A stretch of DNA of 64,000 nt from Cytophagales bacterium (GCA_020403045.1 JADBYK010000025.1:71136-135135), one strand, 5' to 3'; shown: positions 36,092 to 53,382, counted from the first letter of the stretch. The notes: generated from the letters alone by a model not told the origin. Made by a program: numbers and translations.

Positions 36092-36445
36092 ATGCAGCAA
36101 AAATATCTTCATAGTCTGGTTATTTTGATTGCCCTGAGTGGCTTGCTGGTCTATTCTGTGCAGGCGCAAGAAAATCTTCCCATCGACCCGCAAGAGAAAG
36201 AAATCAAGGAGCTAAATAATCACCCGGAATTGAATCTGGACGATGATAAAACCCTCCTTCTCGAATCCGAAGGCCAGAAGCCAAGTACTAGCCAGACCAT
36301 CTCAAAAGAAACTGTAACTGTAAACAAGTCAGCAAAATCAAAATCAGACAAAGCCCATCCCGATAAAGAAGAGGAAGACGCTCTCTCTTTTAATTTTCTT
36401 TATTACATCATCCAGAAGTTCAAGATTTCGGATATCGTTGATTAG
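36092..36445 (+). CDS. Secreted hypothetical protein, disordered core with aromatic C-terminal motif
   Basis: Signal peptide, charged low-complexity middle, ends [21 protein letters not shown]. Confidence 0.65.
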
Positions 36446-37650
36446 ATCGGCCACGGGTCAGCGAATTTATCTTTCGCCTTCCATGCAATCAGTTCATTTG
36501 TCGTAAGTAAACATTTCTGTAGTTCGTTTTTGATAATTTCCGGATTGAGCTCTGTTCCGATAATCACCAACTCGTTCATCCGGTCGCCAAACTCTTTATC
36601 CCATTTTTTCATTAGCTGTTCCTGGTTTTCCATAAAATCGGCTCTGGCTACACGCTGCGCCATGGACATAGACGCCCACCACTTGCCATACATCTCCGCT
36701 TTGGAAGAACCCCCGGCTTGACTCCAAAGAATGGCATCACTTGGCCTGGAGGCAAGCCAAAACATGCCTTTACTTCGAATCACATTCATAGGCCAATTCG
36801 TTTGTACAAAATCCCAAAAACGCTGTGGGTGAAAGGGTCTGCGATCTCGAAAAACAAAGGAGCTGATCCCATATTCCTCGGTTTCAGGAGTGTGTTCATT
36901 GTTTAACTCTTTTAACCAGCCTGCTGATTGTTGAGCCTTTTCAAAATCAAAAAGGCCAGTGTTTAAAATTTGTTTCAAGTCAATCTTCCCATGGTCGGCT
37001 TTGATAAGTTTTGCATCGGGATTGAGTTTTATCAAGATGCCCTCCAGCAACTTTAATTTTTCGGCTGGCACCAAATCTACTTTATTGAGCACGATCACAT
37101 TCGCAAACTCGATTTGATCGGTTAGTAGGTTGACGATACTCCGATCATCTTCCATTTCGCCCGTTAGTTTGCGGTCTTTCAATCGCTCTGCCGAACCAAA
37201 ATCATTGAAAAAATTAAACGCATCGACTACCGTCACCATGGTATCTAGCTGCGAGTATTTGGTGAGGTCGAGCAATTCATCACCTGAAGCAAAACTAAAT
37301 GTTTGTGCTACCGGCAATGGCTCCGATATACCTGTGCTTTCGATCAACAAGTAATCAAACTTCTTTTGCTTGGCGAGTTTTTCCACCTCAATCATCAAAT
37401 CTTCGCGCAGTGTGCAGCAGATACAGCCGTTGCTCATTTCCACCAACTTCTCCTCGGTGCGCGAGAGTTTGATTTCGTTTTTAACCAATTGAGCATCGAT
37501 ATTTACCTCGCTCATGTCGTTGACGATCACAGCTACGCGGAGTCCTTCTCGATTCGAGAGTATATGATTGAGCAACGTGGTCTTTCCTGCTCCCAAAAAT
37601 CCGCTTAGAACGGTAACAGGCAATTTCTTTGCCTTAAATGGATTTATCAT
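36442..37650 (-). CDS. COG0523/CobW family GTPase metallochaperone (ZigA/YciC-like)
   Basis: [33 protein letters not shown], and a CobW_C ELVIIG motif. Confidence 0.95.
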
Positions 37651-38026
37651 AACCAGTTTGTAGTTTTTTTAATCTTGTTTGAATGTCAGTCAGCTGTTGT
37701 CTCAGTTCCTGTTGTACCGACAGCATTTGATCAGGTGTTAGCTCTACTACTTTATGCGAATGAAAATGTTTGTGCTGGTGATGGGTTGACTCATTCACGG
37801 GGACATCTACCATTTCATTTTCCCATTTGGCTATCTCCCGTTCAATTTTTGCGATGGAATCTATGAGCGCTGGATTTTTCCTTAGTGATTGAATAGTTGC
37901 CTGAATATTATCTAAAACAGAAAACGATTCTTGCTGAATAGCCGCTGCCTTTTTTAGTAAGGCATTTTCTTTTTGTGAGCAGCTTAGAGCCAGCATCATG
38001 CCTGTTAGGAAAAGTACTGTCTTCAT
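37634..38026 (-). CDS. His-rich helical lipoprotein
   Basis: Lipobox ALSC and a [11 protein letters not shown] segment. Confidence 0.75.
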
Positions 38027-38454
38027 GGAGTAAGTATCTCAGCTTCATCTAAGATGAAATTCATGTGATTGACATCCGTTCCGTTAAGGCGTAATTTCCC
38101 TTTCACCGTAATGATCTGGTCGGCTTTTAATTTGGGTCGCTTCGTTTTAAAATTGATTTCGGCTACCGATTCAGGGCCAGCACCCCCACAAAAGAAACAA
38201 GAGGCATAGGGATTTTTTGAAAGTACAATGGCGTTGCCCTCTAAATCAAAAGGAATGTAGTGGCCCTTCAAACTAAACTCTTTTCCAATTTTTGCACGCA
38301 ACTCGGGCGTAAAGGACGGAACCAGAAAGTACTCGTTCATCTCTTTAAAAAAAGTGGAAGTGAACTTAACGCGGGCGAGTGTCATCCATCCATCTTCGGG
38401 ATCAGACGGAAAAAAGAAGTGAGCCGCAAAAACGATCGTGCTAATTAGCTTCAT
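38023..38454 (-). CDS. DUF3299-like protein
   Basis: W.TL..V, LKGHYIP, SCFFCGGAGP and an OB-like VKGKLRLN segment. Confidence 0.8.
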   Translation of the reverse strand: MKLISTIVFAAHFFFPSDPEDGWMTLARVKFTSTFFKEMNEYFLVPSFTPELRAKIGKEFSLKGHYIPFDLEGNAIVLSKNPYASCFFCGGAGPESVAEINFKTKRPKLKADQIITVKGKLRLNGTDVNHMNFILDEAEILTP

Positions 38455-38462: not shown

Positions 38463-38849
38463 TTATTGTTCGCGCGTCATTTTTTTATGAAGTTTCCAAT
38501 TCACCAGATGAGCAAGTGCGAGACACACGGCCCCCACTGAAGTGAAGAGTACTTCCCATAAGCTAGATAACTCAATTCTACCAATGATGATCAGGAACAC
38601 TCCCAATACAAAAATTAAAATGGGAGAAAGCCGGTGATGATGATTGATGTAAGACGGTAATAAAGAAGCAAGCGCGAGAAAAAAACTTATGCCTAACACG
38701 CCTCTCTCAATTGAACGGTCAGCCAGGAAATGGAGGCCTTGAAAGAACGATAAAGTGAGCAGCACTGGAACAAACGCACAATGCACGGCACACAGCAGTG
38801 AAGCGGAGAAACCTAACGCGTCTAAGTAATGGGTAAAAAAACTTTTCAT
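38463..38849 (-). CDS. MerC domain membrane protein
   Basis: LDALGFSASLLCAVHC...P and AHLVNW. Four TM segments. ATG 38849. Confidence 0.88.
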   Translation of the reverse strand: MKSFFTHYLDALGFSASLLCAVHCAFVPVLLTLSFFQGLHFLADRSIERGVLGISFFLALASLLPSYINHHHRLSPILIFVLGVFLIIIGRIELSSLWEVLFTSVGAVCLALAHLVNWKLHKKMTREQ

Positions 38850-38870: not shown

Positions 38871-38885
38871 TGCAACAATGTTGCA
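38871..38885. promoter_or_regulatory. Palindromic operator 1, TGCAACAATGTTGCA (putative Zur/Fur-family box)
   Basis: Perfect 7-1-7 inverted repeat overlapping the minus-strand -7 element TATATTTG (38884-38891). Confidence 0.8.
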
Positions 38886-38908
38886 AATATAGGCCAGGTC
38901 AGCTAATA

Positions 38909-38923
38909 TGCAACATTGTTGCA
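38909..38923. promoter_or_regulatory. Palindromic operator 2, TGCAACATTGTTGCA
   Basis: Perfect 7-1-7 inverted repeat containing the minus-strand -33 TTG (38911-38913), 19 nt from the -7. Lies 5 nt before ATG 38929. Confidence 0.8.
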
Positions 38924-38928
38924 TTAAT

Positions 38929-39576
38929 ATGTTATCACTATCATTTTTTGACATCAAAAAGCCAAAAGCATTGGCGGCACAATCGCTTGACGAATTATCA
39001 GGAATAGGTAAGCCTGATACCAACTTGGCCTACTATCAAAGGCCTGTAGATGAAGATATCCATCTTTTTGCTCAAACGCTTCTCGCCAAGGATTTTAGAG
39101 GATTTGACGCGGTGGTGAGTTCCCATTCAATAAAAGAGGTAGTTGCGAATGAATTAGATAAGGTGGCCGTTCACACGTCCGGTAAAATTGGGCTAGCTGA
39201 AGACATTGCCAACCTAACCCAGCTCTTTATTTCCATCACCCGACAAGAACACACACACCTGTATTTGAAACTTGTGAGTGACGATGCCTGCAGAAAATTC
39301 CACACCGATCGGTACGACTTACGACTGCTCTGCACCTACGTGGGGGCAGGCACAGAATGGATAGAAGACCGCTACGTGAATCGAAACAAGTTGGTGGGCG
39401 GAGACAACGAATCCATTGTCAAAGACGCGAGCAAAATAAAAACCATGCAGCCTTTTGAAGTAGGTATTTTAAAAGGTGAAGCATCGCTGCAAAATAAAGG
39501 AAAGGGCATAGTGCATCGCTCTCCACCTATCCAACACAAAAACGAAAAACGACTCTTGTTACGATTAGACTATTAA
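38929..39576 (+). CDS. DUF1826 domain protein (2OG-Fe(II) oxygenase-like fold)
   Basis: CRKFHTD...RLLCTYVGAGTEW and GIVHRSPP...RLLLRLD. Confidence 0.88.
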   Translation: MLSLSFFDIKKPKALAAQSLDELSGIGKPDTNLAYYQRPVDEDIHLFAQTLLAKDFRGFDAVVSSHSIKEVVANELDKVAVHTSGKIGLAEDIANLTQLFISITRQEHTHLYLKLVSDDACRKFHTDRYDLRLLCTYVGAGTEWIEDRYVNRNKLVGGDNESIVKDASKIKTMQPFEVGILKGEASLQNKGKGIVHRSPPIQHKNEKRLLLRLDY

Positions 39577-39590
39577 ACTCAATTATTGAT

Positions 39591-40289
39591 ATGCTAGAAG
39601 CAAAACAACTCAGCAAAAGCTACCAAGGTAAAGAAGCACTAAAACCCACCAGTTTTACCGTCAACAAAGGAGACATCTTTTGTCTGCTTGGCGCGAATGG
39701 CGCAGGCAAAACCACAACAATCAACCTCTTTCTCAATTTCATTCAACCATCCGGAGGTCAGGCATTGATTGGTGGAAAAGATGTGGTGAAAGAACCGCTC
39801 GAAACGAAGAAACTGCTTACCTACATTCCTGAAAACCTGATGCTCTATCCGAATTTGACGGGATTAGAGAACCTCGAATATTTCAGCGGGCTTGCCAACA
39901 AAAAATATCAGAAAGAAGAATTTCTGAAATTCTTAACGGAGGCCGGCCTGCAAGCCGAAGCACACGACAAGAGAATTTCTACGTACTCCAAAGGGATGCG
40001 GCAGAAAGTTGGCATTGCGCTGGCTTTGGCCAAAGATGCGCAAGTGCTACTGTTGGACGAACCTACTTCAGGATTAGACCCGAAAGCAAGCAACGAGTTT
40101 TCGGAATTGCTGACCAAACTGAGCAAGAAAGGAGTGGCTACGCTCATGGCTACCCATGATCTTTTCCGAGCCAAAGAAACGGGCACACACATTGGCATGA
40201 TGCGCGAAGGCAGTTTAGTAGAACAGCTTACCACGGATCAAATCAACCATACGGATTTAGAAAAATTGTATTTGAAACACATGAATTAA
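39591..40289 (+). CDS. ABC transporter ATP-binding protein
   Basis: Walker A GANGAGKTT, signature YSKGMRQK, Walker B LLLDEPTSGLD. Confidence 0.96.
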   Translation: MLEAKQLSKSYQGKEALKPTSFTVNKGDIFCLLGANGAGKTTTINLFLNFIQPSGGQALIGGKDVVKEPLETKKLLTYIPENLMLYPNLTGLENLEYFSGLANKKYQKEEFLKFLTEAGLQAEAHDKRISTYSKGMRQKVGIALALAKDAQVLLLDEPTSGLDPKASNEFSELLTKLSKKGVATLMATHDLFRAKETGTHIGMMREGSLVEQLTTDQINHTDLEKLYLKHMN

Positions 40290-40315
40290 AACATCAAAAA
40301 GCGATATCACCCAAA

Positions 40316-43021
40316 ATGAAGTTTGTCTTTGCAGTTTTAGTCCTCAATGTTTTTTTTGATTCGAATGGCCAATCGGTTAGCGCTATTTCAGCTAAAGTGA
40401 TGGATGCCAAAACCAAAATGCCCTTAGAAAACGTAACAGTGCAACTACTACCAGAAGAGATAGTGACCGTTACCGATGCAAATGGGCTTTTCCAATTCAA
40501 CAAGGTGGCAAACGCAAGTCATACAGTGGTCTTATCGATCATCGGATATACTACGGAAACGATTCTTGTAAAAGACAATTCGATGGGCAGTATCGAGTTG
40601 GAAGAACGAACAATAGCACTAGAAAATGTTACCATAACGGCTACCCCGGGTATGATAGGGTCTTCATCAACCATTGACAAAAGCGCTATTATTCATACAC
40701 AACCTACCAGTTTAGCAGATGTGCTGCAATTGATTCCCGGACAGTTGGCTTCTAATCCGAACTTGGGAGCGGCTCAGCAAATTAATCTTCGCCAAGTACC
40801 GACCACGGGAGATGCCGCAAAAGCCAATGCGCTTGGTACGCAAATCATATTGGACGGTGTGCCCTTTAGTAACAATGCTAATTTACAAACCGATGTTACT
40901 ATCCTGAACTCTAGCCCAGGTGCATTGCCTCCCTTTTCATCAGTAGCTGGGCGCGGGAATGACCTCAGGCAAATTCCTGCTGATAATATTGAAAGCATTG
41001 AAGTGGTTCGCGGTGTGCCCTCTGCTCGTTTTGGCGACCTGACATCCGGCATCGTCATTGTCAATTCAAGAATCGGAAGTTTTAAACCCGAGATACGGGT
41101 ACGAATGAACCCCAATTTGGAGCAGGCCAGTTTTTTCACCGGCTTTCATTCTGCCGGAAAAAGTAATACCTATAATATAAGCGCAGACGCGCTAAATGCC
41201 AGCGATGACATCAGAGATGGTTTCAACAAGTACACACGCGTGCAGGCTCAGATTAGTTGGCAGAAATTTTGGGACAAAGAAAAAAGATTCATCACCACCA
41301 CCATTGGGTCGTTTTATGTAAGTAATGACGGTCAGAACCAAAATCCTGCTGACACGCGCAATCAAATTAAGCGTTATGCTACGGATGATGGATTAAAATT
41401 TAGCACAGCGGGTAAGTGGAGAGCCAATAAAAAATGGCTGGCCTCATTGAACTACATTGCCTCCGTTACCCAAAGCAATCAGAAAGCATATTATCAATCA
41501 CTTGTTACCAGGGATTTGTTTCCGATTTCAACCGCACTGCGAGATACTACTCAAAAAGGTGTTTATGGAAAGAGCGAATACCTCAACAAAACCACCGTTG
41601 ATGGTATGCCTCTTAATGCTTATACACGATTGGAAGCGACCACGTCTGCGAAAGAAATACTCAACACACAGCACAAGCTGACAGTAGGAACAGAATGGAG
41701 ATATGATGTAAACAATGGAAATGGTCGGCAATTCGATTTGCTCACCCCACCACGTCAAAACTACAGTATGGGAGATCGGCCAATATCCTTTTCAAACATA
41801 CCTGGCATGCACCAGATAAGCTATTATCTGGAAGATAGAATGACCAGCGAGCTATACCGTAAACGATGGATTTTGCAAGCTGGAGTCAGAGTCGATAATG
41901 TTTCTCCCACTGGTATTTTAACGAGTAAATATGGGCTAGTCGTAGCTCCGCGCATCAACACTGCATTGGAAATCGCAAATGGAATTTCATTACGAGTAGG
42001 ATATGGAATAGCGGCAAAAGCGCCTCCTCTAAACTACTTGTACCCTGGCATTCGCTATTTTGATTTAGTCAATTTTAATTATTTCGCTACCAATCCTGCG
42101 GAACGTTTGGTCATTATCACCACTCGCACGATCAATCTGAATGACCAACCTTTAAAACCTTACCAATCAAAAAAGTACGAAGCAGGTTTTGACATTGAGA
42201 AAAAAAGAGGCAGTCTAAACGTTTCATTTTTTTCCGAAACGACTACAGGTGCCATCGGTATCAACCGCGAAGTAAAACCATTCGAATTTGCCAGACTGAT
42301 AGCCAGTAGCACCCCTCCCAATCAGCAACCAATAGTAGACCCCAACCCCGCAAGTATTGAAACTTTCTTTGCGGCCTATGATGTGCCGGTCAACAATCGG
42401 TTCATAGAAAATCAAGGTGTTGAATACAATGTTGACTTGCGCGAAATACCAGCTATCCGTACTTCTTTCAACATCACTGGTGCCTATATCCGAACAACTA
42501 GTTTTGACGATGGAGAATTTATAGATGCCCAAAAAGCTTATTTGAGCAACACGACTCCAATTCGAGTGGGTATTTATCAATCATCTTCAAAAGTTATCGC
42601 AGAACGTCTCAACACAAGCGTGCGATTTATCCACCGTATTCCTCAATTGAATATGGTCGTGTCTGCTTTGTGGCAAACAGTGTGGATTACAAAAAGTACT
42701 ACTGAGGCTCTGAATCCATTTCCTCTTGGATATATGAATAGAGCTGGCGAAAAAATCTATCTGAATGAGGAGGAGGCTAGGCAGATCGCTTATGGTGATT
42801 TGGTAAGAACCGTGAGCGATGCACGGCCCTTCAGTTTGCCTGCCCTGTACTTGTTTAACATACGATTAACCAAAGAATGGGCAAAAGGCTTTGGCTTTTC
42901 TTTTTTTGCTAACAACTTCATAAACGACCGTCCCTTGCATACGGATGTCAACACGGGTGGACTGGTTCGCAGAAATGAACCTTTGTTTTTTGGTGCCGAG
43001 TTTAATTTTTCAATAAGATAA
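40316..43021 (+). CDS. TonB-dependent receptor with N-terminal CarboxypepD_reg-like domain
   Basis: N-terminal GKV-like domain, plug DLRQIPADNIESIEVVRGVPSARFGDLTSG, C-terminal FFGAEFNFSI. Confidence 0.92.
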   Translation: MKFVFAVLVLNVFFDSNGQSVSAISAKVMDAKTKMPLENVTVQLLPEEIVTVTDANGLFQFNKVANASHTVVLSIIGYTTETILVKDNSMGSIELEERTIALENVTITATPGMIGSSSTIDKSAIIHTQPTSLADVLQLIPGQLASNPNLGAAQQINLRQVPTTGDAAKANALGTQIILDGVPFSNNANLQTDVTILNSSPGALPPFSSVAGRGNDLRQIPADNIESIEVVRGVPSARFGDLTSGIVIVNSRIGSFKPEIRVRMNPNLEQASFFTGFHSAGKSNTYNISADALNASDDIRDGFNKYTRVQAQISWQKFWDKEKRFITTTIGSFYVSNDGQNQNPADTRNQIKRYATDDGLKFSTAGKWRANKKWLASLNYIASVTQSNQKAYYQSLVTRDLFPISTALRDTTQKGVYGKSEYLNKTTVDGMPLNAYTRLEATTSAKEILNTQHKLTVGTEWRYDVNNGNGRQFDLLTPPRQNYSMGDRPISFSNIPGMHQISYYLEDRMTSELYRKRWILQAGVRVDNVSPTGILTSKYGLVVAPRINTALEIANGISLRVGYGIAAKAPPLNYLYPGIRYFDLVNFNYFATNPAERLVIITTRTINLNDQPLKPYQSKKYEAGFDIEKKRGSLNVSFFSETTTGAIGINREVKPFEFARLIASSTPPNQQPIVDPNPASIETFFAAYDVPVNNRFIENQGVEYNVDLREIPAIRTSFNITGAYIRTTSFDDGEFIDAQKAYLSNTTPIRVGIYQSSSKVIAERLNTSVRFIHRIPQLNMVVSALWQTVWITKSTTEALNPFPLGYMNRAGEKIYLNEEEARQIAYGDLVRTVSDARPFSLPALYLFNIRLTKEWAKGFGFSFFANNFINDRPLHTDVNTGGLVRRNEPLFFGAEFNFSIR

Positions 43022-43055
43022 AAAAGTAAAATAATAACCTAAATACAATTCTAAC

Positions 43056-44246
43056 ATGAAACAATCCCTCTTTTTCGTATTTGCTATAATAATGTCTTTT
43101 ACGGCTTGCCGTAAAGAAATTGATGAACTAAAAACATATGCCGTCACCGTTCAGGCGAAATATCCATCTACCTTTAGTAGCCAACTGGCTCTTGACGCAA
43201 CCGTAACACTTACCAATATAGCAGATGGAAGCATAAAAACAAGTACGACAAATGCTTCGGGCGATGCAGTTTTCAAAGATGTATTGCCCGGAACCTATAG
43301 TATTGCCGCCAACAAAAGTCTTTCGGCTGCTGACGCTCTTTCCCTTACAGGAATAAGCAATAGCGTCCAATTGAATGGTGCTAAAAACGATGTTCTCATT
43401 TCCCAAGCCGAAACCTTCCAGTTACAACTTCAAGGCAGCGCCATTGGTGGGTTAGTCATTAAAGAGGTGTACTATACAGCCAGCAAAACACCAAGTGGTG
43501 GTAACTACTTTAGCGACCAGTTTGTAGAAATTTATAACAATGCCACAGATACGTTATACCTAGACAGCCTCTGCATTGCCGATATACATGGTAATTCAGG
43601 TTTGATAAATCCGACCTCACTACCAACTCCTTTTAATACTGACAATGGCAATGTGTACGCAAACAGTATCTGGCAAATTCCAGGCACAGGCAAACAATAT
43701 CCATTGGCACCAGGCCAGAGTATTGTCATTGCGCAAGATGGTGTGAACCACAAAGACGCATCGCTAAACCCAAGTAGCCCCGTTGACTTATCAGCGGCCA
43801 ATTGGGAGACCTACAACGAACGCCCAGATGGGCGAGATGCTGATGCTCCACAAGTACCGAATTTAAGAAGGGTATATTTCACTGGAGGATTTGATTGGTT
43901 GCTCACCGTGTTTGGGCCGGGCGTTATTATTTACAAAGCCGACTTTACTAAGCTGGAGCAGGTAGCTATCCCAGGTGCCAGTTCTACTACACCCCCGCGG
44001 ATCAAAGTACCCAATGGCGTTATTATTGACGGCTTTGAGGCATTGAGAGATGGAAATAGTGCAAGCTTCAAGCGAGTGACAACGGCAGTGGATGCCGGTT
44101 TTGTGTTTGCCGATAACACCTACAACATGCAAAGTTTTAGACGCAAGGTTACTACAATTATCAATGGAAGGCGTGTGTTGCAAGACACCAACAATAGCAC
44201 TAATGATTTTGAAAAAATAGCGTCACCTACGCCAAAAGGATTTTAA
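43056..44246 (+). CDS. Surface lipoprotein, DUF4876-like
   Basis: Lipobox FTAC followed by KEIDE. LVIKEVYY, DQFVEIYNN..DTLYLD, and LQDTNNSTNDF. Confidence 0.8.
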   Translation: MKQSLFFVFAIIMSFTACRKEIDELKTYAVTVQAKYPSTFSSQLALDATVTLTNIADGSIKTSTTNASGDAVFKDVLPGTYSIAANKSLSAADALSLTGISNSVQLNGAKNDVLISQAETFQLQLQGSAIGGLVIKEVYYTASKTPSGGNYFSDQFVEIYNNATDTLYLDSLCIADIHGNSGLINPTSLPTPFNTDNGNVYANSIWQIPGTGKQYPLAPGQSIVIAQDGVNHKDASLNPSSPVDLSAANWETYNERPDGRDADAPQVPNLRRVYFTGGFDWLLTVFGPGVIIYKADFTKLEQVAIPGASSTTPPRIKVPNGVIIDGFEALRDGNSASFKRVTTAVDAGFVFADNTYNMQSFRRKVTTIINGRRVLQDTNNSTNDFEKIASPTPKGF

Positions 44247-44317
44247 AAAATCTTGAAAGCAGCCTTTCTTTTGTCAAAGCGCGTCAACGATTGGAAATGG
44301 TAAAGTTTAAAAACATC

Positions 44318-45784
44318 ATGCGTAATTTGTTAATCATGGACTGCCTATTGCTGACAGTCTTTGCCGGTAGAGCTCAGCAAATGGGCATTGACAGTTTGCA
44401 AGTGTTGCAAGATGGAAGAGCTTTAAATGCGTTTACTGCTACCGGCAACATGGTGTTTGCTGGCGACTTGTTACCCAACATTGGCTATGGAGCCGCCACA
44501 GCAAGCCGCCAAGTAGGTGGATTTCGTCAACCAATGACTGCCGCTGAGAAAATTGATCTATCGCTGGCAACAACAGGTTTCAAAAAAGTCAAGCAGTTGG
44601 GGTACTATGGGGACTTATCGTATAAAAAGTCAGATGATAGTAATTTGCCCTGGAGCGGTGTATACAATGCAGCAGACGACAACCCCGCAATATGGGCTGA
44701 TAGCAGCCGTGGCAATTGGAAGCGAGACGAGATAGAAGTAACCTTTGGAATTAGCGCACCAGAGTTAATCAAAAAACTTTCTGTAGGCATGCAGATACAC
44801 TATGCGATCGGTTCGGGAGCGCGAACATCTGACCCCAAACCATTCTATCGATACAGAAATATAGTGCTGATGCCCGGCATAACGTACCAATTGCCCAAGA
44901 ATCAATTGATAGGAATAACAGCAACTATTGGCTTTGCTAAAGAAGAAAATGAACTCGGTTTCTTTAGCGATAATAATGACAATGTGTTGCTATACCGCAT
45001 CAGGGGCTACGGTACCTTCAGTAGAACCCCCTTTGTAAGTGGCGAACGAAAAAGAATTCAATCAGACCTTGGCGCTAATGTCCACCACCAAAAAAAATGG
45101 AAAGACTACAAGTTGTTGGTTGCAGCCCACGTCAGGCAGCGAAGCGATGAAGTCATTGAGGGCGTTGCCAGTCCGGTGGTCACCAATTACTTTTCGGGTA
45201 TTGAGTTAGGCAGTTCTATTGACTTATTTAAAGGAAATCCGACTGCCGGAAGATCTGCGTCATTAAAAGTAACTTCTAAAAATGGCTACACCGATGATGT
45301 CATCTTCCAAGCTGAAAGTGCTTCCTCCATCCAGCAACGTGTACTGTTGAAAGTAAGCAACTGGTTTACTCGCAACAAAAGCATCTGGCAGTTTTCGGTG
45401 ACACCCATTTTTACCTTTATCGACAATACTGACTATGCCACCGTAACACAATTTACAGCCAGCAACCTTATTGCTGTTGGCAACGCATCCTTTCGACATA
45501 AAATAGGTAGTGGAATGCAGTTGTATGTCAGCATAGAGGGAGGAGCGAGCCGCTTATTAGAAGCCTATTTTATCAACCAGCGCCCCAATGTGATTACGGA
45601 GCAATTGGTTCGTCCTAATTACCTTTTTCACACAACTAATTATGTGTTGGCTAACGCGCAGGTAGGGGTTGTTATTCAAAGTAACAATAGGCTTGGGCAT
45701 ACGGTGTCAATAAGCTCGGTCAATAAATTGGCGGCCAATGTTTCGAGATCAAATCTTCAGTTTAACTATTCTATTATTTTTTGA
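44318..45784 (+). CDS. Outer-membrane beta-barrel, DUF6850-like
   Basis: Signal peptide, many amphipathic strands, DPKP, C-terminal FNYSIIF. Follows the DUF4876-like gene. Confidence 0.7.
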   Translation: MRNLLIMDCLLLTVFAGRAQQMGIDSLQVLQDGRALNAFTATGNMVFAGDLLPNIGYGAATASRQVGGFRQPMTAAEKIDLSLATTGFKKVKQLGYYGDLSYKKSDDSNLPWSGVYNAADDNPAIWADSSRGNWKRDEIEVTFGISAPELIKKLSVGMQIHYAIGSGARTSDPKPFYRYRNIVLMPGITYQLPKNQLIGITATIGFAKEENELGFFSDNNDNVLLYRIRGYGTFSRTPFVSGERKRIQSDLGANVHHQKKWKDYKLLVAAHVRQRSDEVIEGVASPVVTNYFSGIELGSSIDLFKGNPTAGRSASLKVTSKNGYTDDVIFQAESASSIQQRVLLKVSNWFTRNKSIWQFSVTPIFTFIDNTDYATVTQFTASNLIAVGNASFRHKIGSGMQLYVSIEGGASRLLEAYFINQRPNVITEQLVRPNYLFHTTNYVLANAQVGVVIQSNNRLGHTVSISSVNKLAANVSRSNLQFNYSIIF

Positions 45785-45830
45785 TGAAAAATCGAATGCT
45801 TTTGATGAACCTAAAAACAAACAGCTACGA

Positions 45831-46664
45831 ATGAAAAGGTATTTATGTACGGGCATTATAGCGATTGGGCTGCTTAGTTGTGGTTTAAACAAGTCATTGA
45901 CCAAGCAATTGGCAAACGAACCATTCCAACAAGCGTTGGCTGATACACTATTGGCGTATGCACTAGACCATGAAGCATTGTACACGTTAGCAGATACACT
46001 AAAGCCTGTGAGCAGTGTCAAATTTCTGCGCTATTCCATTGCCAAAGATTCTACGCAACACGATGGGGACATCACCATTGCCACCCGGGATTCTTTATTG
46101 AAAAAAATAAGAGACTATCAACAGGTATGCCATATGCTTAGCGAAGGCGATTGGCAGTTTGTTCTGACGCCATTTAACAGAACAGAAAAGAACATCAGAA
46201 ACATGGAGATCTATGTGGTACGAAAGTCTGTCTTTGCCAAAAAGATACGGCAGCATCAACACTTCTTTGGGCAGTGGGGCTTTACGCCAAATGCCAGTCC
46301 CGCAGTGGTCTTATCCGTAATTGAATATGAAACAAAGTTAGACAGGAACAGAGCCTTCGGCTATCTCTTCGGCTACCCACCACATGCGGTCGATTTTTTT
46401 GTGGAGGCTGCCAAAGTACAAAATGCCGATACGTCTAAACCATTGGTGAAAAGAGACTTCTTTTCAATCCCTGTGTTTGCAAAAGCCACCGGGTATTTTA
46501 CTTACGCGGTGCCAAAAGGTTATAAAGCCACCCCGGTGGATAGCACCATTTATAAAGCCGCAACTCAAACGCTGCAACGATACAAAGTGGCCCGAGCAAA
46601 ATTTAGCCAAACTAAGAATGTAGATGCCCTTAAACTTTGGAGGTATTTAATTGATAAAAACTAA
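45831..46664 (+). CDS. Hypothetical lipoprotein
   Basis: Lipobox LLSC and a FGYLFGYPPHAVDFF motif. ATG 45831. Confidence 0.7.
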   Translation: MKRYLCTGIIAIGLLSCGLNKSLTKQLANEPFQQALADTLLAYALDHEALYTLADTLKPVSSVKFLRYSIAKDSTQHDGDITIATRDSLLKKIRDYQQVCHMLSEGDWQFVLTPFNRTEKNIRNMEIYVVRKSVFAKKIRQHQHFFGQWGFTPNASPAVVLSVIEYETKLDRNRAFGYLFGYPPHAVDFFVEAAKVQNADTSKPLVKRDFFSIPVFAKATGYFTYAVPKGYKATPVDSTIYKAATQTLQRYKVARAKFSQTKNVDALKLWRYLIDKN

Positions 46665-46755
46665 AAATGAATTTAAAAGTCAACTATAGCATCATCATTC
46701 AAGCAAATAAAAAAAGCTAATCTTAAATAACCCAATTATAAACAAATACAACTTT

Positions 46756-48171
46756 ATGACCCTAAAAATCGCACTCAAAGAGCTCAAAGAAATCGTTCGG
46801 GAGGGACGCTTTCGAATTACGGCCATCACCCTTTTTGCTTTGTTGCTGGCCGCCTTGTTTGTGAGCAAAAGCTATTACACATCGGTCAATGCCCAGCACA
46901 GCGAAGCCAAAAAAAATGCACGCAGCGAGTGGGTGGAACAGGGACAAAAAAATCCGCACTCGGCAGCGCACTATGGCACATACGCATTCAAACCAAAGTA
47001 TCCGCTTTCGTTGATTGACAATGGTGTGGATAAGTACACGGGCGTAAGCATTTACCTGGAAGCACATAAACGCAACGAAGCTCAATATGCGGCTGCACAA
47101 GATCAAACCGCCCTGTCGCGTTTTGGTGATCTCACGCCTGATTTTGTTCTGATCTTTATCGTTCCCCTTTTCATCATTCTGATCGGGTTCAATGCCTTTA
47201 CGCGCGAACGTGAAAGCGGCACGCTACGATTATTGAAAAGTCAGGGTGTGAGCACGTGGAAATTAACGATGGGAAAATGGTTGGGCATATTTCTTCCCGT
47301 TTTGTTCATTGTGATTCCCGTGTATGTGCTGGCCGCTTTATTTTTAGCCAACATCAAAGATTACGGACAGTTTAGTTTGTGGGCGCTCACCCTCCTGTTT
47401 GGCGTTTACCTGATCTATTATGCAGTGTTCATCAATATCACGCTGTTTGTTTCCTCTCGTTTTAAAAAATCAAACTTAGCGTTCGTGACATTGCTGGGAA
47501 TTTGGATGGTATCGTGTTTAGCGATGCCCAAGATTTCAACTGCCATTGCGGATAAACTGTACCCTTATCCCACGCAAGTGGAATTTGAAGAACAGGTAGC
47601 GGCTGACAAAAAGAAAGGATTGGATGGACACAATCCGTGGAATACCGAAGCGAAGAAACTGGAAGAAGAAACGTTAAAAAAATATGGAGTCGACAGCGTG
47701 CAGCAATTGCCCTTCAACTGGGATGGCTTTTTGATGCAGGAAGGCGAGAAGCATACTGCTGATATTTATTTCAAGCATTATCAATTGTTGAAAGACACGT
47801 ATGTGAATCAGACCAACGTGTATCGCAGCACGGCTGCGCTTTCTCCTTTTCTGCCCACGCGCTTTTTGTCGATGGCCATTTGCCGCACCGATTACACCTC
47901 GCATTGGGACTTTGCCACCGCAGCTGAAAATTACCGTATTGAATTGGTGGGGAAAATGAATGGTGATATGGCAGCCAATTCAAAATATGGCGATTGGGAT
48001 TATCTGGCCGATGATAAACTGTGGTCTTCGGTGCCTGATTTTCAATATGAACCGGCTTCATACACCACTGTGATCCGTCAGAACACGAGCAATCTCATCA
48101 CCTTATTAGCATGGCTGTTGCTCTCCTTTGCCGCATTGTACGGAGCGGTCACTCAAATGAAAACCATCTAG
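46756..48171 (+). CDS. ABC-2-type permease with DUF3526-like domain
   Basis: NPHSAAHYG, RERESGTLRLL..QG, multiple TMs and SPF. Confidence 0.85.
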   Translation: MTLKIALKELKEIVREGRFRITAITLFALLLAALFVSKSYYTSVNAQHSEAKKNARSEWVEQGQKNPHSAAHYGTYAFKPKYPLSLIDNGVDKYTGVSIYLEAHKRNEAQYAAAQDQTALSRFGDLTPDFVLIFIVPLFIILIGFNAFTRERESGTLRLLKSQGVSTWKLTMGKWLGIFLPVLFIVIPVYVLAALFLANIKDYGQFSLWALTLLFGVYLIYYAVFINITLFVSSRFKKSNLAFVTLLGIWMVSCLAMPKISTAIADKLYPYPTQVEFEEQVAADKKKGLDGHNPWNTEAKKLEEETLKKYGVDSVQQLPFNWDGFLMQEGEKHTADIYFKHYQLLKDTYVNQTNVYRSTAALSPFLPTRFLSMAICRTDYTSHWDFATAAENYRIELVGKMNGDMAANSKYGDWDYLADDKLWSSVPDFQYEPASYTTVIRQNTSNLITLLAWLLLSFAALYGAVTQMKTI

Positions 48172-48232
48172 TCACATCACGGGCGTCAAGACACCTTTAT
48201 ATCGTTAAATCAAAATCATAAACCATAACCTT

Positions 48233-49672
48233 ATGTTAAACCATACTATCAAATACGAATGGCTCAACTTGCTACGCGACAGGTGGGTGATGATTCTGCT
48301 GATTTTATTTTTGGGCATCACCGTGTTTGCGGTGCGCAATGGAAAGGAAAAAGTGGAGGATCGTATGGCCACTATTACCAAAGAAAAAGAAAAAATGGCG
48401 AAGCTAGATCGGAGGATGGCTGCTGAAATAGACTCGCTGCACAAAAATCTGAAACCGGCACCCGCGGCAAGGCAAGATTCACGTGCACTGGATAAAATTG
48501 GGTGGAATGCCCCACGTGTTGTCGCCATGGATGCTCAACCGCTGGCGGTTGTTTCTACTGGCCAAAGCGACTTATTTACGCACTATTCAAAACCAAAAAT
48601 TTATGGCGAGGCCTACACACTTGGCTTCTCGGAACTCTCAAACCCCGTTCAACTTTTGTTTGGCAGTTTTGATCTTGCCTTCGTTTGCATCTACCTGCTT
48701 CCCCTACTGGTGTTGGGCTTTAGTTACAACATACTTTCGTCCGAGAAAGAATCGGGTGTGTTGCGCTTGACGTTGGCACAGCCTATATCCTTGTACCAAT
48801 GGTTATTTGGAAAGTTGCTTCTCCGCTTTTTTATTCTCACTGTCATTGTTGTTGCCTCTATTCTTTTTTCGTTAACAATTTTTGACATTGATTGGATGGG
48901 CAACATGGGAGCAGCGATGAAATTAATTCTGCTCGTCACCGTGTATATCTTTTTTTGGTTCTTGATTTCATTTTTAATAAACCTGTTGGGGAACTCATCC
49001 GGCAGCAATGCGGTCACATTGATAGCGGTGTGGGTTGTGTTTGTGCTTTTGATCCCGTCTATTATTTCGCAAACGGCAAACTCCTTTTATCCCGTGCCAT
49101 CGCGCACCATTATGATTCATGAATATCGGGAGGCAAAAGCATTGGCGGAGAAAAAGGCGGATGAAATACTGAAAACGTATTACCGGGAGCATCCGGAATA
49201 TGCTCCGAAAGATACTACTCAGCAAAACCAGTATAGTTGGTGGCTGGGAAACTTTGCCGCCAGCGATGTCATCAACCAATCAGTACAACCTGTGTTGGAT
49301 GATTATAATGAAGCACTGAATAAACAACAAAGCTGGGTCAATCGACTTCGCTATTTGTCGCCCGCTATTTTGTTGCAAGACGGGTTGAATGATCTGGCGG
49401 GAACTTCTCCAGCGCATTACACCGACTTTCGGAATCAGGTGATTGCATTTGCCAATACGTGGCGCCACTATTTTACTCCACGGATGTTTAATAATGAAAA
49501 GATGCGGGCAGAAGACTTTGGTTCCTTGCCAACGCACAGCTATTCTTCGGCTCAAGTGCCTTCGCACTACAATGCAGATTTGATGGGGCTTCTTTTCTTT
49601 TTAGGATTGGCGTTAGCAGGAAGTCTCTGGGCTTATCGAAGAAATAGTTTTGAGCGGATAGTATCCATGTAG
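48233..49672 (+). CDS. ABC-2-type permease with DUF3526-like domain (second subunit)
   Basis: FGSFDLAFV.IYLLPL, SEKESGVLRL and YLSPAILLQ..LNDLAGT. Confidence 0.85.
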   Translation: MLNHTIKYEWLNLLRDRWVMILLILFLGITVFAVRNGKEKVEDRMATITKEKEKMAKLDRRMAAEIDSLHKNLKPAPAARQDSRALDKIGWNAPRVVAMDAQPLAVVSTGQSDLFTHYSKPKIYGEAYTLGFSELSNPVQLLFGSFDLAFVCIYLLPLLVLGFSYNILSSEKESGVLRLTLAQPISLYQWLFGKLLLRFFILTVIVVASILFSLTIFDIDWMGNMGAAMKLILLVTVYIFFWFLISFLINLLGNSSGSNAVTLIAVWVVFVLLIPSIISQTANSFYPVPSRTIMIHEYREAKALAEKKADEILKTYYREHPEYAPKDTTQQNQYSWWLGNFAASDVINQSVQPVLDDYNEALNKQQSWVNRLRYLSPAILLQDGLNDLAGTSPAHYTDFRNQVIAFANTWRHYFTPRMFNNEKMRAEDFGSLPTHSYSSAQVPSHYNADLMGLLFFLGLALAGSLWAYRRNSFERIVSM

Positions 49673-49674
49673 AA

Positions 49675-49926
49675 ATGAAACTTTACGATGTCATTACCAC
49701 CAAAAAAAAAGCGGCATACATAGGTTTGTATTTGGTGGTATTTTCATTTGTGGGATTCACGCAGTCGCAAGACGAAGCCACCATTTTTACTCCCATCCAG
49801 CCGCCAAAAGAAATAAAGCTTTACAAAGTCAGCGGAGCCATTAATTCAGGTGTCGTCAATTCAAGGATGTCTTGGGAGTATGAAACGGTTTCATTTGTGT
49901 ATAACGATACAGCAAGATGCCTTTAA
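49675..49926 (+). pseudogene. Short ORF, probably the 5' remnant of a longer secreted protein
   Basis: Signal-like N-terminus (...FVGFTQSQ) followed by only ~50 residues. Starts 2 nt after the permease stop. Confidence 0.4.
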
Positions 49927-50028
49927 CACCACCACTTTACTTACCGATCGGCTGCGCACATAAAGTGGCATTTTCAAAATCACCTTTATGAAACAGTTTT
50001 AATCAAGTCCAACTTATCCAGCTATATT

Positions 50029-50043
50029 CGCAACTCTGTTGCA
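50029..50043. promoter_or_regulatory. Operator 3, CGCAACTCTGTTGCA (imperfect copy)
   Basis: GCAAC-N3-GTTGC core intact. Overlaps TATATTCG (-7-like, 50023-50030) and ends 2 nt before ATG 50046. Confidence 0.7.
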
Positions 50044-50045
50044 AG

Positions 50046-52448
50046 ATGAACTACACGTTTACCTTACTTTTACTTTTTAGACTGTCAATGTCCTTTGGCC
50101 AATCGTGTGACTTTACACTTTCAGGCAAGGTCTCTGATGAGATGGGGAACCCATTAGTTGGAGCAACAATTTTGCTAGCGAAGCAAAATAGAGGAGAGGT
50201 AGCAGACGAAAATGGATTCTTCGAATTCAATAAACTTTGCAGCGGGAAATATCAAATTGAAGTCAGGTTTGTTGGTTTCAAAACGATTTCAAGTAGCGTT
50301 AAACTTTCTGCCAACAAAGTTTGGAATGTAACATTGCAAAGTGATAGCACCGCGCTGAATGAAGTAGTCATTTCAGAAAAGCACGTTGAGTTGGCAGCTA
50401 CCTCCACCTATAGTTCGCTTTCTGGAAAAGCACTCGAAGAAACATTAGGCAAATCATTGGGGGAATCGCTGCGCGAAATTCCGGGAGTCAATACCATTCA
50501 AACAGGCCCTGCTATTTTCAAACCAGTGATTCATGGCGTGCATAGCCAACGGGTGTTAATCTTAAACAACGGCATCCGCCAAGAAGGACAAAACTGGGGC
50601 GCGGAGCATGCACCCGAAGTCGATCAGTTTATTGCATCGAACATCATCGTAATTAAAGATGCTGCGGCCATCAAGTATGGAGCTGATGCGTTGGGTGGAG
50701 TGGTGCTGGTGAACCCCGCTAAGGTACCGACCCAAGCCGGGCTGGGTGGACAAGTACATGTAATCGGTGCGACTAACAATGGATCGGGTGTACTTTCTGG
50801 ATATTTGGAAGGTGGGCTGAAAAAGTTGCCGGGATTTGGTTGGCGCGCTCAAGGCACAATCAAAAAGGCAGGCGACTCACGCACAGCCAACTATGTGTTA
50901 TCCAACACAGGTTTTGAAGAACAGAATTTTTCTATTGCCACGGCTTATCACTCCGAAAAAAAAGGAGTCGATATTTTCTATAGCCACTTCAACACTTCAA
51001 TTGGAATTTTGCGAGGCACGGCCGTGGAGACTGCAGAAGACCTGGCTAATGCAATCGAGCGAGAACCGCCTCAGTACACGTCTCCATTCACGTATGACAT
51101 TAAGCAACCTCGCCAATCGGTACAACATGATTTGCTTAAGGTAAATGCGCATTTAGCAGAAGGTAAAAATGAATTCCGTTTGCAATATGGATTTCAAAAC
51201 AACAGGCGTAGAGAATTTGATTTTCGATTAGGTGCTGCCTTGTCCGACATACCCGCGCTCGGGTTTCAGTTACAAACGCACACACTCGATGCCGATTGGG
51301 AGCGCTCACATTCTACAAAGTTTCAAAGTTGCTGGGGTGTGAACATCCTCTATCAAAGCAACAGTAAGATCGATGGCACTCAAACAATTCCTTTCATCCC
51401 TAATTTTGATCACTATACAGCTGGTGTTTTTGCTGTTGAAAAATTGACACTAAATGACTGGGTGGTAGAGCTTGGTCTTCGCTATGACTTCAAAAAGTAT
51501 GATGTGATCGGTTTTAATTTTCAGAATAGACTCTATCGATCAAACATCGACTTTCAGAACTTTAGCGGTACTTTTTCGACAAAACGAAAGCTCGGAAATT
51601 TTTCTTCATTAACTACCTCAATAAGCAATGCATGGAGGCCTCCCAATATGGCAGAGCTGTATAGCCTGGGAACGCACCAAAGTGCGGCAGCGATTGAGTA
51701 TGGATTATTGTTGGACGAAAAAACATCGGAAGTAAAAGAATATACTGCTACTGGTGCAAGAGTAGAAAAAGCCTTTAAGGGGGTAGTCGGTTACAAAATT
51801 GAAAAGCAGAAATTCACCACAGAGTTAACAGGTTACGTCAACTACATTTTCGATTTTATTTACCTGCGTCCGCGTGGAGTAACCGAAGGTCTGCGAGGAA
51901 TTTTCCCGTATTTCCGATACACTCAAACAGATGCTTCTTTTATTGGTTTCGATCTGTTCTCAGTATATCAACTCAATCGACAGCTGACACTTACTGGGAA
52001 GGCCTCACTACTACGAGCCACCGATGAGACTCAAAACGATTTCCTGATCTTCATTCCATCCAATCGAGCCGATATAGGTTTGCGTTACGACTCAAAGCCA
52101 ATAAAAAAATTCAGTTGGAATGCCGAAATAAAGATTCGCTGGGTGGGCATGCAAAACCGCGCGCCACAAGTAATTACACCCCGCGAAATTATTGAAGCTC
52201 AAAAACAAGGCATCGATATAATTGCGCAGCGACCGGACAATTTTGATTTTGCCCCTGCCCCGGATAGTTATTTCTTATCATCACTTGGACTAGGCGCCAC
52301 ATGGAAACTCGAAAAATCGAAGTGGGATATTCGCCTCTCCTGCGATAACCTGACCAACGAAGCCTACCGCGAATACACCAACCGCTTAAGGTATTTTGCC
52401 GATGATGTAGGCCAAAATATCACATTAGGCATTCATTTTAGCTTTTAG
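50046..52448 (+). CDS. TonB-dependent receptor, probably for zinc or another metal
   Basis: Plug KPVIHGVHSQR...WGAEHAPEVD, loop LGTHQSAA, and C-terminal RYFADDVGQNITLGIHFSF. Confidence 0.92.
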   Translation: MNYTFTLLLLFRLSMSFGQSCDFTLSGKVSDEMGNPLVGATILLAKQNRGEVADENGFFEFNKLCSGKYQIEVRFVGFKTISSSVKLSANKVWNVTLQSDSTALNEVVISEKHVELAATSTYSSLSGKALEETLGKSLGESLREIPGVNTIQTGPAIFKPVIHGVHSQRVLILNNGIRQEGQNWGAEHAPEVDQFIASNIIVIKDAAAIKYGADALGGVVLVNPAKVPTQAGLGGQVHVIGATNNGSGVLSGYLEGGLKKLPGFGWRAQGTIKKAGDSRTANYVLSNTGFEEQNFSIATAYHSEKKGVDIFYSHFNTSIGILRGTAVETAEDLANAIEREPPQYTSPFTYDIKQPRQSVQHDLLKVNAHLAEGKNEFRLQYGFQNNRRREFDFRLGAALSDIPALGFQLQTHTLDADWERSHSTKFQSCWGVNILYQSNSKIDGTQTIPFIPNFDHYTAGVFAVEKLTLNDWVVELGLRYDFKKYDVIGFNFQNRLYRSNIDFQNFSGTFSTKRKLGNFSSLTTSISNAWRPPNMAELYSLGTHQSAAAIEYGLLLDEKTSEVKEYTATGARVEKAFKGVVGYKIEKQKFTTELTGYVNYIFDFIYLRPRGVTEGLRGIFPYFRYTQTDASFIGFDLFSVYQLNRQLTLTGKASLLRATDETQNDFLIFIPSNRADIGLRYDSKPIKKFSWNAEIKIRWVGMQNRAPQVITPREIIEAQKQGIDIIAQRPDNFDFAPAPDSYFLSSLGLGATWKLEKSKWDIRLSCDNLTNEAYREYTNRLRYFADDVGQNITLGIHFSF

Positions 52449-52450
52449 GT

Positions 52451-52493
52451 TTGATTATTCATCAGAAGTAGCTATAATTGCAACATTGTTGCA
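52451..52493 (+). promoter_or_regulatory. Promoter TTG-N19-TATAATTG overlapped by operator 4, TGCAACATTGTTGCA (52479-52493)
   Basis: TTG at 52451-52453, -7 at 52473-52480, then a perfect palindrome. Confidence 0.8.
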
Positions 52494-52507
52494 TTAAATT
52501 AAACTTT

Positions 52508-53355: not shown

Positions 53356-53382
53356 GCTCGGCATCATTGCCGAGCTTTTTTT
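53356..53382 (+). terminator. Intrinsic terminator
   Basis: GCTCGGCA-TCAT-TGCCGAGC followed by T7. Confidence 0.8.

Follow-up and report, generated by a model that had tools for sequence, protein, structure and literature searches.

What is the job of an exporter-type ABC (ATP-binding cassette) system in a regulon that appears to serve metal uptake? This question is raised by a stretch of 64,000 nucleotides (nt) from a freshwater Cytophagales bacterium (GCA_020403045.1 JADBYK010000025.1:71136-135135; hereafter the window, numbered from its first letter), in which the genes of a TonB-dependent receptor and three companion proteins lie inside the operon of an ABC-2 type transporter with DUF3526 permeases. 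The genes read rightward in the order DUF1826, ATPase, TonB-dependent receptor (TBDR1), DUF4876 lipoprotein, DUF6850 barrel, lipoprotein LP4, permease and permease. Open reading frame (ORF) calls and family profiles leave spacers of only 14-91 nt inside the run, and 6,467 nt separate the ATPase stop at 40289 from the first permease start at 46756. Our preferred reading, held with a probability of about 60%, is that this 10-kb run would be the rightward operon of a 17-kb island (36.4-53.4 kb) devoted to metal starvation and most likely under repression by a regulator of the Fur family and of Zur type, and that the receptor and perhaps the ABC transporter would serve metal uptake. Zinc is the best-supported metal, with roughly three chances in four, because the predicted products include a ZigA-type COG0523 protein, DUF1826, an ABC-2/TBDR pairing like ZnuGHI/ZnuK of Caulobacter and, in related loci, a regulator closest to Zur, all behind one operator.

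The nested arrangement is real and not an assembly artefact, because single contigs from two other runs, X14 (40197-46932) and X16 (40236-47024), each cross both junctions of the four-gene module. The complete 10 kb is represented in freshwater metagenomes from several studies. No shift in composition was found across the module, and no convincing flanking repeats that could mark an insertion or excision. The gene order and domains (DUF1826, ATPase, TBDR, DUF4876, DUF6850, lipoprotein, two DUF3526 permeases) had been described before in a first interpretation of the bare nucleotide string, here called the sequence-only reading, and were matched by ORFs and Pfam; its estimate of about 6.5 kb between ATPase and permeases agrees with the measured distance.

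Conservation of the module was followed in a survey that started from DUF6850 homologues, proceeded to their gene neighbourhoods and to a scan of species-representative genomes, and finally mapped the island proteins on the loci obtained (denoted by L numbers). TBDR1, DUF4876, DUF6850 and LP4 are found together in 19 distinct loci of Cytophagales, Chitinophagales and Sphingobacteriales (Pelobium). The contig of L014 is too short for the entire module, and in L017 the LP4 gene is found immediately ahead of the others, on the opposite strand. Identity to the window protein ranges across loci from 41 to 71% for TBDR1, 49 to 73% for DUF4876, 36 to 64% for LP4 and 26 to 53% for DUF6850, and the TBDR1-DUF4876 pairing is retained in all 19 related loci. 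Conserved to this extent, the four genes make up one functional unit of fixed composition, and chance does not account for their proximity. Most of the protein families are named already; the four-gene unit, its control site and one protein appear to be previously undescribed.

The control site is the palindrome TGCAACAnTGTTGCA, a 7-1-7 operator of Fur-family type that is present in four copies in the island. Copy 1 (TGCAACAATGTTGCA, 38871-38885) is an exact palindrome; copy 2 (TGCAACATTGTTGCA, 38909-38923), also exact, lies 38 nt from it and abuts the DUF1826 start on its upstream side. Copy 3 (CGCAACTCTGTTGCA, 50029-50043) has two mismatches, is preceded by TATATT and ends 2 nt ahead of the ATG of a second receptor gene, TBDR2, and the exact copy 4 (52479-52493) has TATAAT before it. 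The sequence-only reading had recognised the palindrome pair at 38871-38923, and both members are indeed exact, but it took them for the sole operator; with the two further copies, the control region that it saw is one of three in the 17-kb island. The window has three exact matches to the pattern TGCAACANTGTTGCA, and 100 shuffles produced none. The operator usually has TAtaTT ahead of it, which together with its first two bases makes TAnnTTTG, and at these sites we take TAnnTTTG to be the Bacteroidota -7 promoter element. This arrangement is seen at three of the four window sites, and the site at 38909 fits it poorly; at copy 1, a minus-strand TATATT provides TAnnTTTG for a divergent operon that runs from a MerC-like gene to the COG0523 gene. 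With operator and -7 element predicted to overlap, a bound repressor would occlude the promoter.

The same site recurs well beyond the window. With up to two mismatches it is present in 16 of the 19 distinct related loci, where it precedes the module, the ABC ATPase, COG0523 and the Fur-family gene itself, and in six of them (L001, L003, L009, L015, L017, L021) operators form pairs spaced 35-40 nt, mostly 38-40 nt. The exact 19-mer TATTTGCAACATTGTTGCA was found in at least 120 metagenome contigs, and after removal of duplicates the matches listed comprise 104 sites with a downstream ORF. Half of these 104 listed sites are followed first by a gene with a homologue in the island, most commonly an LP5-type lipoprotein (13), followed by COG0523 (9), a Fur-family regulator (8), a TBDR2-type receptor (7), a MerC-like protein (7), the ABC ATPase (3) and the small proteins p143 (3) and p130 (2). 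Other listed sites include more MerC-like proteins, His-rich lipoproteins and lipoproteins of DUF4625, another family predicted to form lids on TonB-dependent transporters (TBDTs). TBDR2-like genes often come after the operator or a Fur-family gene, and the COG0523-DUF1826 pair stands behind the operator in L022. Five 19-mer sites in one apparent phage are probably due to chance. Separately, the exact 19-nt promoter-operator was noted in L056, L061, L071 and L113 upstream of a run that, judged from sequence, resembles phage head genes (237, 410, 185 and 111 amino acids); this is either a chance match or a phage carrying a host operator.

A Fur-family gene (PF01475, 4.1e-6) adjoins the operator in L003, L017 and eight metagenome sites and is present in L022. 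The best PDB match of the regulator is E. coli Zur (4mtd, 1.2e-4), against 0.015 for Fur, and its best NCBIfam match is likewise a Zur model (PRK11639); both Zur matches are weak and only slightly better than those to Fur. Because L017 carries two adjacent Fur-family paralogues, the lineage has more than one such regulator.

Zinc is suggested by the company that the operator keeps. The last gene of the divergent operon (36442-37650, minus strand; Pfam cobW and CobW_C) encodes a COG0523 metallochaperone GTPase that reaches 578.8 bits over 389 of 390 positions of the ZigA model NF038288 (cut-off 600), compared to 159.5 bits for CobW and far lower scores for HypB and UreG. Elsewhere, few genes are found behind the operator as often as its orthologues (61-84% identity). 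DUF1826 (PF08856, 4.8e-51), the first gene of the rightward operon, is assigned to 38929-39576 on the plus strand; the ORF opens at 38908, and 38929 is the likely start because the first ATG falls within the operator. The protein has no match in the PDB. In Proteobacteria, DUF1826 accompanies Zur-regulated COG0523 genes (PMC2770081). The divergent operon begins with a MerC-like small membrane protein (38463-38849, minus strand; Pfam MerC, 1.2e-20), whose start lies at 38849 and not at 39023 as first proposed. A conserved C-x-x-H-C in its first transmembrane segment, together with His residues, makes it a candidate inner-membrane metal permease, and MerC-like genes are frequent first genes behind the operator. 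Both these CxxHC proteins and the His-rich lipoproteins belong to the operator regulon and are counted for zinc. The sequence-only reading had likewise placed the module under metal starvation and zinc limitation: the regulon stands, zinc is favoured by the ZigA score, DUF1826, the Caulobacter-like pairing and the regulator, and the metal itself is something that we infer.

As an observation in its own right, the MerC-like C-x-x-H-C family (window 38463-38849; L024, L043, L073, L093 and others) is a core component of the regulon and is often followed by COG0523, an arrangement that resembles a mer-type relay reused for another metal.

Within the module, TBDR1 (40316-43021, plus strand) is a TonB-dependent transporter of 901 amino acids with CarbopepD_reg_2, Plug and barrel domains. 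With 76.4 bits on the SusC model TIGR04056, whose cut-off is 368, it is by profile score not a member of the SusC family (TBDR2 obtains 75.5 bits). The DUF4876 lipoprotein (43056-44246, plus strand) starts 34 nt after it. Pfam confirmed the family (PF16215, 3.9e-39; 135 bits, cut-off 27.9), as it did for DUF6850 (PF21012, 1.5e-58), in the search that the sequence-only reading had proposed for both. Its lipobox SFTAC is followed by RKEIDE, and most orthologues carry K-K/R-D or D/E-rich residues resembling an export signal after the lipid-bearing Cys. The lipoprotein is thus predicted to be a surface-exposed lid of TBDR1. DUF4876 has been predicted to form a partly open lid on the outer face of TBDTs (Price, bioRxiv 10.1101/2023.03.17.533168).

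The other two members of the module have no characterised counterpart to lean on. The AF2 model of the DUF6850 outer-membrane barrel (44291-45784, plus strand; pLDDT 86.8) has 18 predicted strands, and a fold search of the PDB returned generic barrels only (TM ≤ 0.42). Its most conserved motif, LLYR-RG-G..SGERKR (residues 224-250; window 44960-45040), lies in the sole low-confidence loop of the model, a loop that may bind a partner or be plug-like, and its LLYR-RG-G part is invariant; a role as channel or as assembly helper for the lid lipoprotein is possible. LP4 is a lipoprotein of 277 amino acids (45831-46664, plus strand) whose ORF opens at 45738 and whose lipobox start, MKRYLCTGIIAIGLLSC, lies at 45831. 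It has no Pfam or NCBIfam match and, against the PDB, neither a fold match (best E 0.17, TM ≤ 0.21) nor a significant sequence match (best E 0.095), with an AF2 pLDDT of 88.5. It belongs to a sizeable family, with 358 homologues at 45-65% identity and 342 representatives at 50% clustering. In 17 of 18 orthologues the lipid Cys is not followed by any acidic residue, from which LP4 is predicted to stay on the periplasmic face. Conserved across the family are a D-H-E triplet, E-x-E and D-R-x-R, suggestive of a site for binding or catalysis. In other organisms, LP4 is joined within one single ORF (P0174) to a DUF3526 permease and within another (P0288) to MerC and a CBM9/DUF5916 protein; judged by amino-acid composition, P0288 seems to derive from a high-GC organism that does not belong to the group. 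Both keep a signal-peptide-like segment before the LP4 part and were rejected as proven fusions; they are counted as adjacency and may reflect read-through. Remoter LP4-like domains are joined to erythromycin-esterase-like, HAD phosphatase, methyltransferase and DUF5829 domains.

The surrounding transporter consists of an ATPase with an ABCA/NosF-like nucleotide-binding domain (39591-40289, plus strand; ABC_tran, 1.6e-29) and two DUF3526/ABC-2 permeases on the same strand (46756-48171, PF12679 9.7e-30 and PF12040 9.9e-29; 48233-49672, PF12040 1.7e-29 and PF12679 1.4e-20). The best NCBIfam match of the ATPase is of DrrA type, and in the PDB the nucleotide-binding domains of ABCA come first, followed by NosF (4.5e-35). 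Permease 1, which is related to NosY, has NosY (7o0y_D, 1.4e-3) as its only PDB sequence match at E < 0.1. Each permease has six transmembrane segments, with large loops of 92 and 189 amino acids in permease 1 and of 112 and 171 amino acids in permease 2. These loops, which correspond to DUF3526, would be periplasmic if the N-terminus is cytoplasmic, as the K/R-rich start suggests.

Under the zinc-starvation reading, a coherent route can be drawn. With sufficient metal, repressor dimers would bind TGCAACAnTGTTGCA, overlapping the -7 element at most sites; when zinc becomes scarce, the Zur-type repressor would be released and the operons derepressed. TBDR1 and its DUF4876 lid would then capture zinc or a small zinc-ligand complex for TonB-powered import, LP4 would handle the cargo in the periplasm, and passage over the inner membrane would fall to the MerC-like CxxHC permease, to the DUF3526 ABC system or to the two together, after which the ZigA-like GTPase would allocate the cytoplasmic zinc. 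The weakest step of this route is the part given to the ABC-2 system, its fold class being typical of exporters and of the NosDFY motor.

The signals looked at are compatible with transcription of the whole run as a single unit. A scan of the spacers inside the run for TAnnTTTG gave no hit in any of them, and no comparable intergenic terminator-like hairpin was found ahead of the one at 53352-53379 (plus strand; 12-bp stem and T run), the first strong one downstream; the region free of them includes 38929-49926, and weak hairpins occur in coding sequence only. The sequence-only reading had named an internal promoter or terminator between module and ABC genes as evidence against its view: the spacers show neither the -7 motif nor such a hairpin, and promoters may still lie within coding sequence. 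A sigma-70 promoter scan stayed at chance level, the model not being applicable to Bacteroidota.

Several observations count against the zinc-starvation reading. The window contains no gene for a Fur-family regulator, and neither zinc-independent ribosomal protein paralogues nor a ZnuA-type binding protein were encountered behind the operator among the approximately 104 listed sites. The residues conserved in DUF4876 are mostly Asp, Asn and Glu, with one His and no Cys. ABC-2 (type V) transporters are mostly exporters or mechanotransducers, which makes import by a DUF3526 system doubtful. The DUF4876-TBDT systems studied so far, PG1019-22 and BT3625-33, respond to iron or heme limitation, and in Chitinophaga, L013, L015 and L020 the module is found without ABC genes within 10 kb. 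The roles given to DUF6850, LP4 and DUF1826 are guesses, and expression support is thin: three short metatranscriptome contigs of 151-214 nt map cleanly to the island, too little to show co-transcription.

How firmly are module and transporter tied to each other? Among the alternatives, the one that survives best holds that they are two independent uptake systems sharing only a regulator, their interleaving being accidental, which we regard as unlikely, though as a serious contender. It draws on the populations closest to that of the window. Contigs from two runs of different studies (X27 and X18) join 40291 directly to 46765 and so skip exactly the module; they have 90-97% nucleotide identity to the window over the ABC genes, with the ATPase stop followed after about 12 nt by a permease start that reads MIL..KIAL instead of MTLKIAL. 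In four lake metagenomes, sequencing depth over the ABC genes (39600-40290 and 46760-49600) is 2-4 times that over the module, DUF1826 and the outer flanks. From this excess, several co-occurring relatives share near-identical ABC genes in different contexts, and from the excess together with the module-skipping contigs, close relatives carry a plain three-gene ABC operon. The module-bearing loci without nearby ABC genes point the same way, as does the clustering of DUF3526 genes with other TBDRs in Spirosoma and in the alphaproteobacterium Blastomonas, in whose DUF3526 locus no Caulobacter-type Zur box was found.

Against mere coincidence stands the recurrence of the linkage. In nine related loci, with differing gene orders, no more than 10 kb separates the module from DUF3526 ABC genes, and at least seven further lineages have the two side by side and in the same direction. 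A complete ABC operon precedes the module immediately in L003, L011 and L022; in L004 the permeases come first and the ATPase directly ahead of TBDR1; in L021 the ABC genes lie just downstream, and in L001 downstream as a separate transcription unit with its own operator. In L017 they are on the opposite strand, and in L009 and L012 they lie downstream with another TBDR between ATPase and permeases. The latter belongs to a third TBDR type (820-855 amino acids, 45-75% identity among copies) which in five independent loci occupies the same ATPase-permease spacer, directly upstream of the DUF3526 permeases, following the ABC ATPase in L009 (10116-12581), L012 (14679-17171) and L070 and a COG0523 gene in L059 and L093. 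The adjacent or merged permease-LP4 ORF P0174 also argues against independence. L007 was considered as a second case of nesting and rejected: its ATPase is directly ahead of TBDR1, but no permease comes after LP4.

The linkage of module and DUF3526 ABC genes claimed by the sequence-only reading is therefore borne out, with a shared operator and in three bacterial orders. As to whether the module is a one-off insertion, the linkage recurs in the nine loci, whereas the exact nesting is not kept, the siblings having contiguous ABC genes. The precise nesting belongs to this population alone and is a rearrangement, within one lineage, of genes that keep company elsewhere too. These gene neighbourhoods soundly support a partnership of DUF3526 ABC-2 transporters with TonB-dependent receptors that extends across phyla, to Bacteroidota and Proteobacteria alike, and in which the module would be one of several possible receptors.

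Two neighbours of the module elsewhere were noted in passing. In lineages that lack ABC genes close to the module, an EamA-family gene is a frequent follower. An EamA (DMT) gene, absent in the window, comes directly after LP4 in L003 (12296-13228), L005 (12291-13166) and L012 (12334-13251), which represent two orders, and in L005, from Chitinophaga alhagiae, a small His/Cys-rich ORF (5655-5960; HHHDHEIH..CPVCE) is placed between operator and TBDR1.

A second alternative keeps zinc and reverses the ABC system: the DUF3526 ABC-2 transporter would export a small molecule that binds zinc, or recycle the ligand once it has been emptied, TBDR1 and DUF4876 would import the loaded form, and zinc would enter through a MerC-like or EamA-type protein. 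The ABC-2/type V class of ATPase and permeases (DrrA-, ABCA- and NosFY-like), the lack of a substrate-binding protein gene in the island, the EamA gene directly behind LP4 in the three loci just named and the position of MerC-like permeases as core regulon members all fit this proposal. A DMT-family protein exports pseudopaline in Pseudomonas. We nevertheless consider it improbable, since no metallophore biosynthesis genes were detected in the island or in the related loci examined and large periplasmic domains are unnecessary for a simple exporter of small molecules.

Iron or heme iron could be the cargo instead, in an acquisition island under a Fur-type regulator with COG0523 and DUF1826 as passengers or in the service of another metal. 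This third alternative can point to induction by iron depletion of up to 214-fold for PG1019-22 and of 38- to 128-fold for BT3625-33, to up-regulation of PG1019/1020 without heme, and to the joint presence of TBDR, DUF4876 and ABC ATPase in BT3625-33 as well. The best, if weak, matches of TBDR2 are to heme and hemoglobin receptor models, and the Zur score of the regulator exceeds that for Fur only slightly. On the other side, the COG0523 protein is of the ZigA type rather than CobW or another subfamily and is among the commonest operator-linked genes; no Feo, PepSY/ferric reductase, HmuY or siderophore genes are among the operator-linked genes examined; and the lineage holds more than one Fur-family regulator, as the paralogues of L017 indicate. 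The classical Fur half-site is TGATAAT, to which the operator half-site TGCAACA is unlike. Taken together, we judge an iron island to be quite unlikely.

Equally long odds are given to a bolder version of the zinc-starvation reading, in which module and DUF3526 ABC-2 system would be a single envelope-spanning metal machine of a new type. TBDR1 and DUF4876, possibly with DUF6850, would import a zinc carrier, LP4 would dock on the DUF3526 domains, and ATP would be spent on stripping zinc off for transfer to the MerC-like permease and ZigA, with no pumping by the ABC system. If true, this would be a NosDFY-like periplasmic machine for metal transfer and much more notable. Sensing and import of cobalt, nickel or manganese, finally, is very improbable: the regulator is not typable from sequence alone and COG0523 and His-rich lipoproteins also serve Co and Ni, but the ZigA score lies far over CobW, HypB and UreG and no cobalamin, urease, hydrogenase or Mn-enzyme genes are linked.

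The remaining genes of the island and its flank can be dealt with briefly. In the divergent operon, p130 (37634-38026, minus strand), a 130-amino-acid lipoprotein of unknown family called from its ORF and lipobox, has no significant family match, only a sub-threshold one to DUF7342, and p143 (38023-38454, minus strand) is a 143-amino-acid exported protein of unknown family with a conserved CxxC. Homologues of p130 occur behind the operator in metagenome loci, those of p143 in L001, L021, L023 and operator-linked metagenome loci. A putative ORF of 83 amino acids with a signal-peptide-like N-terminus (49675-49926, plus strand) starts 2 nt past permease 2; it has no family match and no homologue in related loci. 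Further downstream, a receptor and a lipoprotein are paired once more (50029-53110), and both of these genes, TBDR2 and LP5, have an operator copy to themselves. TBDR2 (50046-52448, plus strand; 800 amino acids) scores 105 bits on the NCBIfam TonB-hemin model and 72.7 bits on ZnuD, both far under cut-off, and LP5 (52508-53110, plus strand), an acidic lipoprotein of 200 amino acids (CKKDDP), is its predicted surface-exposed partner. Outside the island, an 810-amino-acid product (33218-35650, minus strand) combines Mur ligase domains with a complete alanine racemase.

A literature search retrieved no description of a Bacteroidota Zur regulon, of TBDT-based zinc uptake in this phylum or of an outer-membrane zinc acquisition route in environmental Bacteroidota, and, among the papers searched, no mention of DUF6850 or DUF3526. 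The locus supplies a candidate Zur operator and its regulon for Cytophagales, Chitinophagales and Sphingobacteriales. It also puts the DUF4876-TBDT family, met so far only in the iron stimulons of gut and oral species, into a second metal context, and it brings in two obligate partners that nobody has studied, a barrel of 18 strands and a lipoprotein without solved structural relative. Cultured carriers exist in Chitinophaga alhagiae T22, which has the module, and in Spirosoma oryzicola RHs26, in which TBDR and DUF3526 ABC genes come with the exact operator; for Leadbetterella byssophila the locus is so far known from a MAG.

How does the island compare with known systems? The sequence-only reading had seen a resemblance to the iron capture system (ICS) of Capnocytophaga canimorsus, which likewise serves metal uptake at the outer membrane in Bacteroidota and encodes a TBDT together with several lipoproteins. 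ICS consists of a SusC/RagA-type TBDT, a SusD/RagB lipoprotein and a metallohydrolase-type lipoprotein (PMC5429918). This described composition sets it apart and the relationship was rejected: TBDR1 is not SusC (76 versus 368 bits), no SusD/RagB match was obtained among the products of 38908-53110, and a metallohydrolase lipoprotein is missing. Neisseria TbpA/TbpB/Slam and ZnuD-type systems share the combination of a TBDT, a surface lipoprotein and an extra barrel under metal-starvation control, and family and fold searches revealed no DUF560/Slam domain, no TbpB-like fold and no significant similarity of TBDR1 to ZnuD. Bacteroidota export surface lipoproteins by a signal different from that of the Neisseria Slam systems. 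The ZepA system was also considered and is unrelated.

In NosDFY, cytoplasmic ATP hydrolysis does mechanical work in the periplasm, a mechanism derived from cryo-electron microscopy. NosDFY/NosL is a copper-delivery machinery (PDB 7o0y; PMC8457098); NosY is the closest solved relative of permease 1 and NosF is among the closest of the ATPase. The permease similarity is confined to the transmembrane core (E 1.4e-3), and here the periplasmic mass is built into the permeases as DUF3526; family searches gave no match in the island to the beta-helix partner NosD or to the chaperone NosL, to which LP4 is unrelated.

Closer parallels are offered by the Zur regulon of Caulobacter crescentus, where Zur directly represses znuGHI (an ABC-2 ATPase and two permeases), the adjacent TBDR gene znuK and zrpW-zrpX (PMC4176598). 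Both regulons place an ABC-2 ATPase and two permeases by a TBDR, contain an operon for a membrane protein and COG0523, and use one Fur-family operator. The likeness to ZnuGHI (CC1518-CC1520) is one of published gene makeup, and the direction of ZnuGHI transport is an assumption in that study (PMC4176598). The Caulobacter regulon belongs to another phylum, has an operator of the GTTATnnnATAAC type and is without lipoprotein lid, extra barrel and LP4. The DUF4876-TBDTs of Bacteroides and Porphyromonas (BT1939/BT1938, BT3633/BT3632, PG1020/PG1019) resemble the island in having a non-SusC TBDT followed by a DUF4876 lipoprotein on the same strand and in being induced by metal starvation, and BT3625-33 includes an ABC ATPase. 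It is limitation of iron or heme to which these operons respond, and the literature still treats them as uncharacterised. As annotated in the transcriptome study, they list no DUF6850, though unnamed hypothetical proteins are present, and they have no COG0523/DUF3526 linkage, whereas here the pair is part of a fixed four-gene unit in a ZigA/COG0523 regulon. By its predicted proteins, the island belongs to the DUF4876-lidded kind of TBDT system; it differs from the known members of this kind and from the Caulobacter regulon in four respects: DUF6850 and LP4 are obligate partners, the operator has another sequence, MerC-like and ZigA proteins accompany the receptor, and receptor genes are placed inside an ABC operon.

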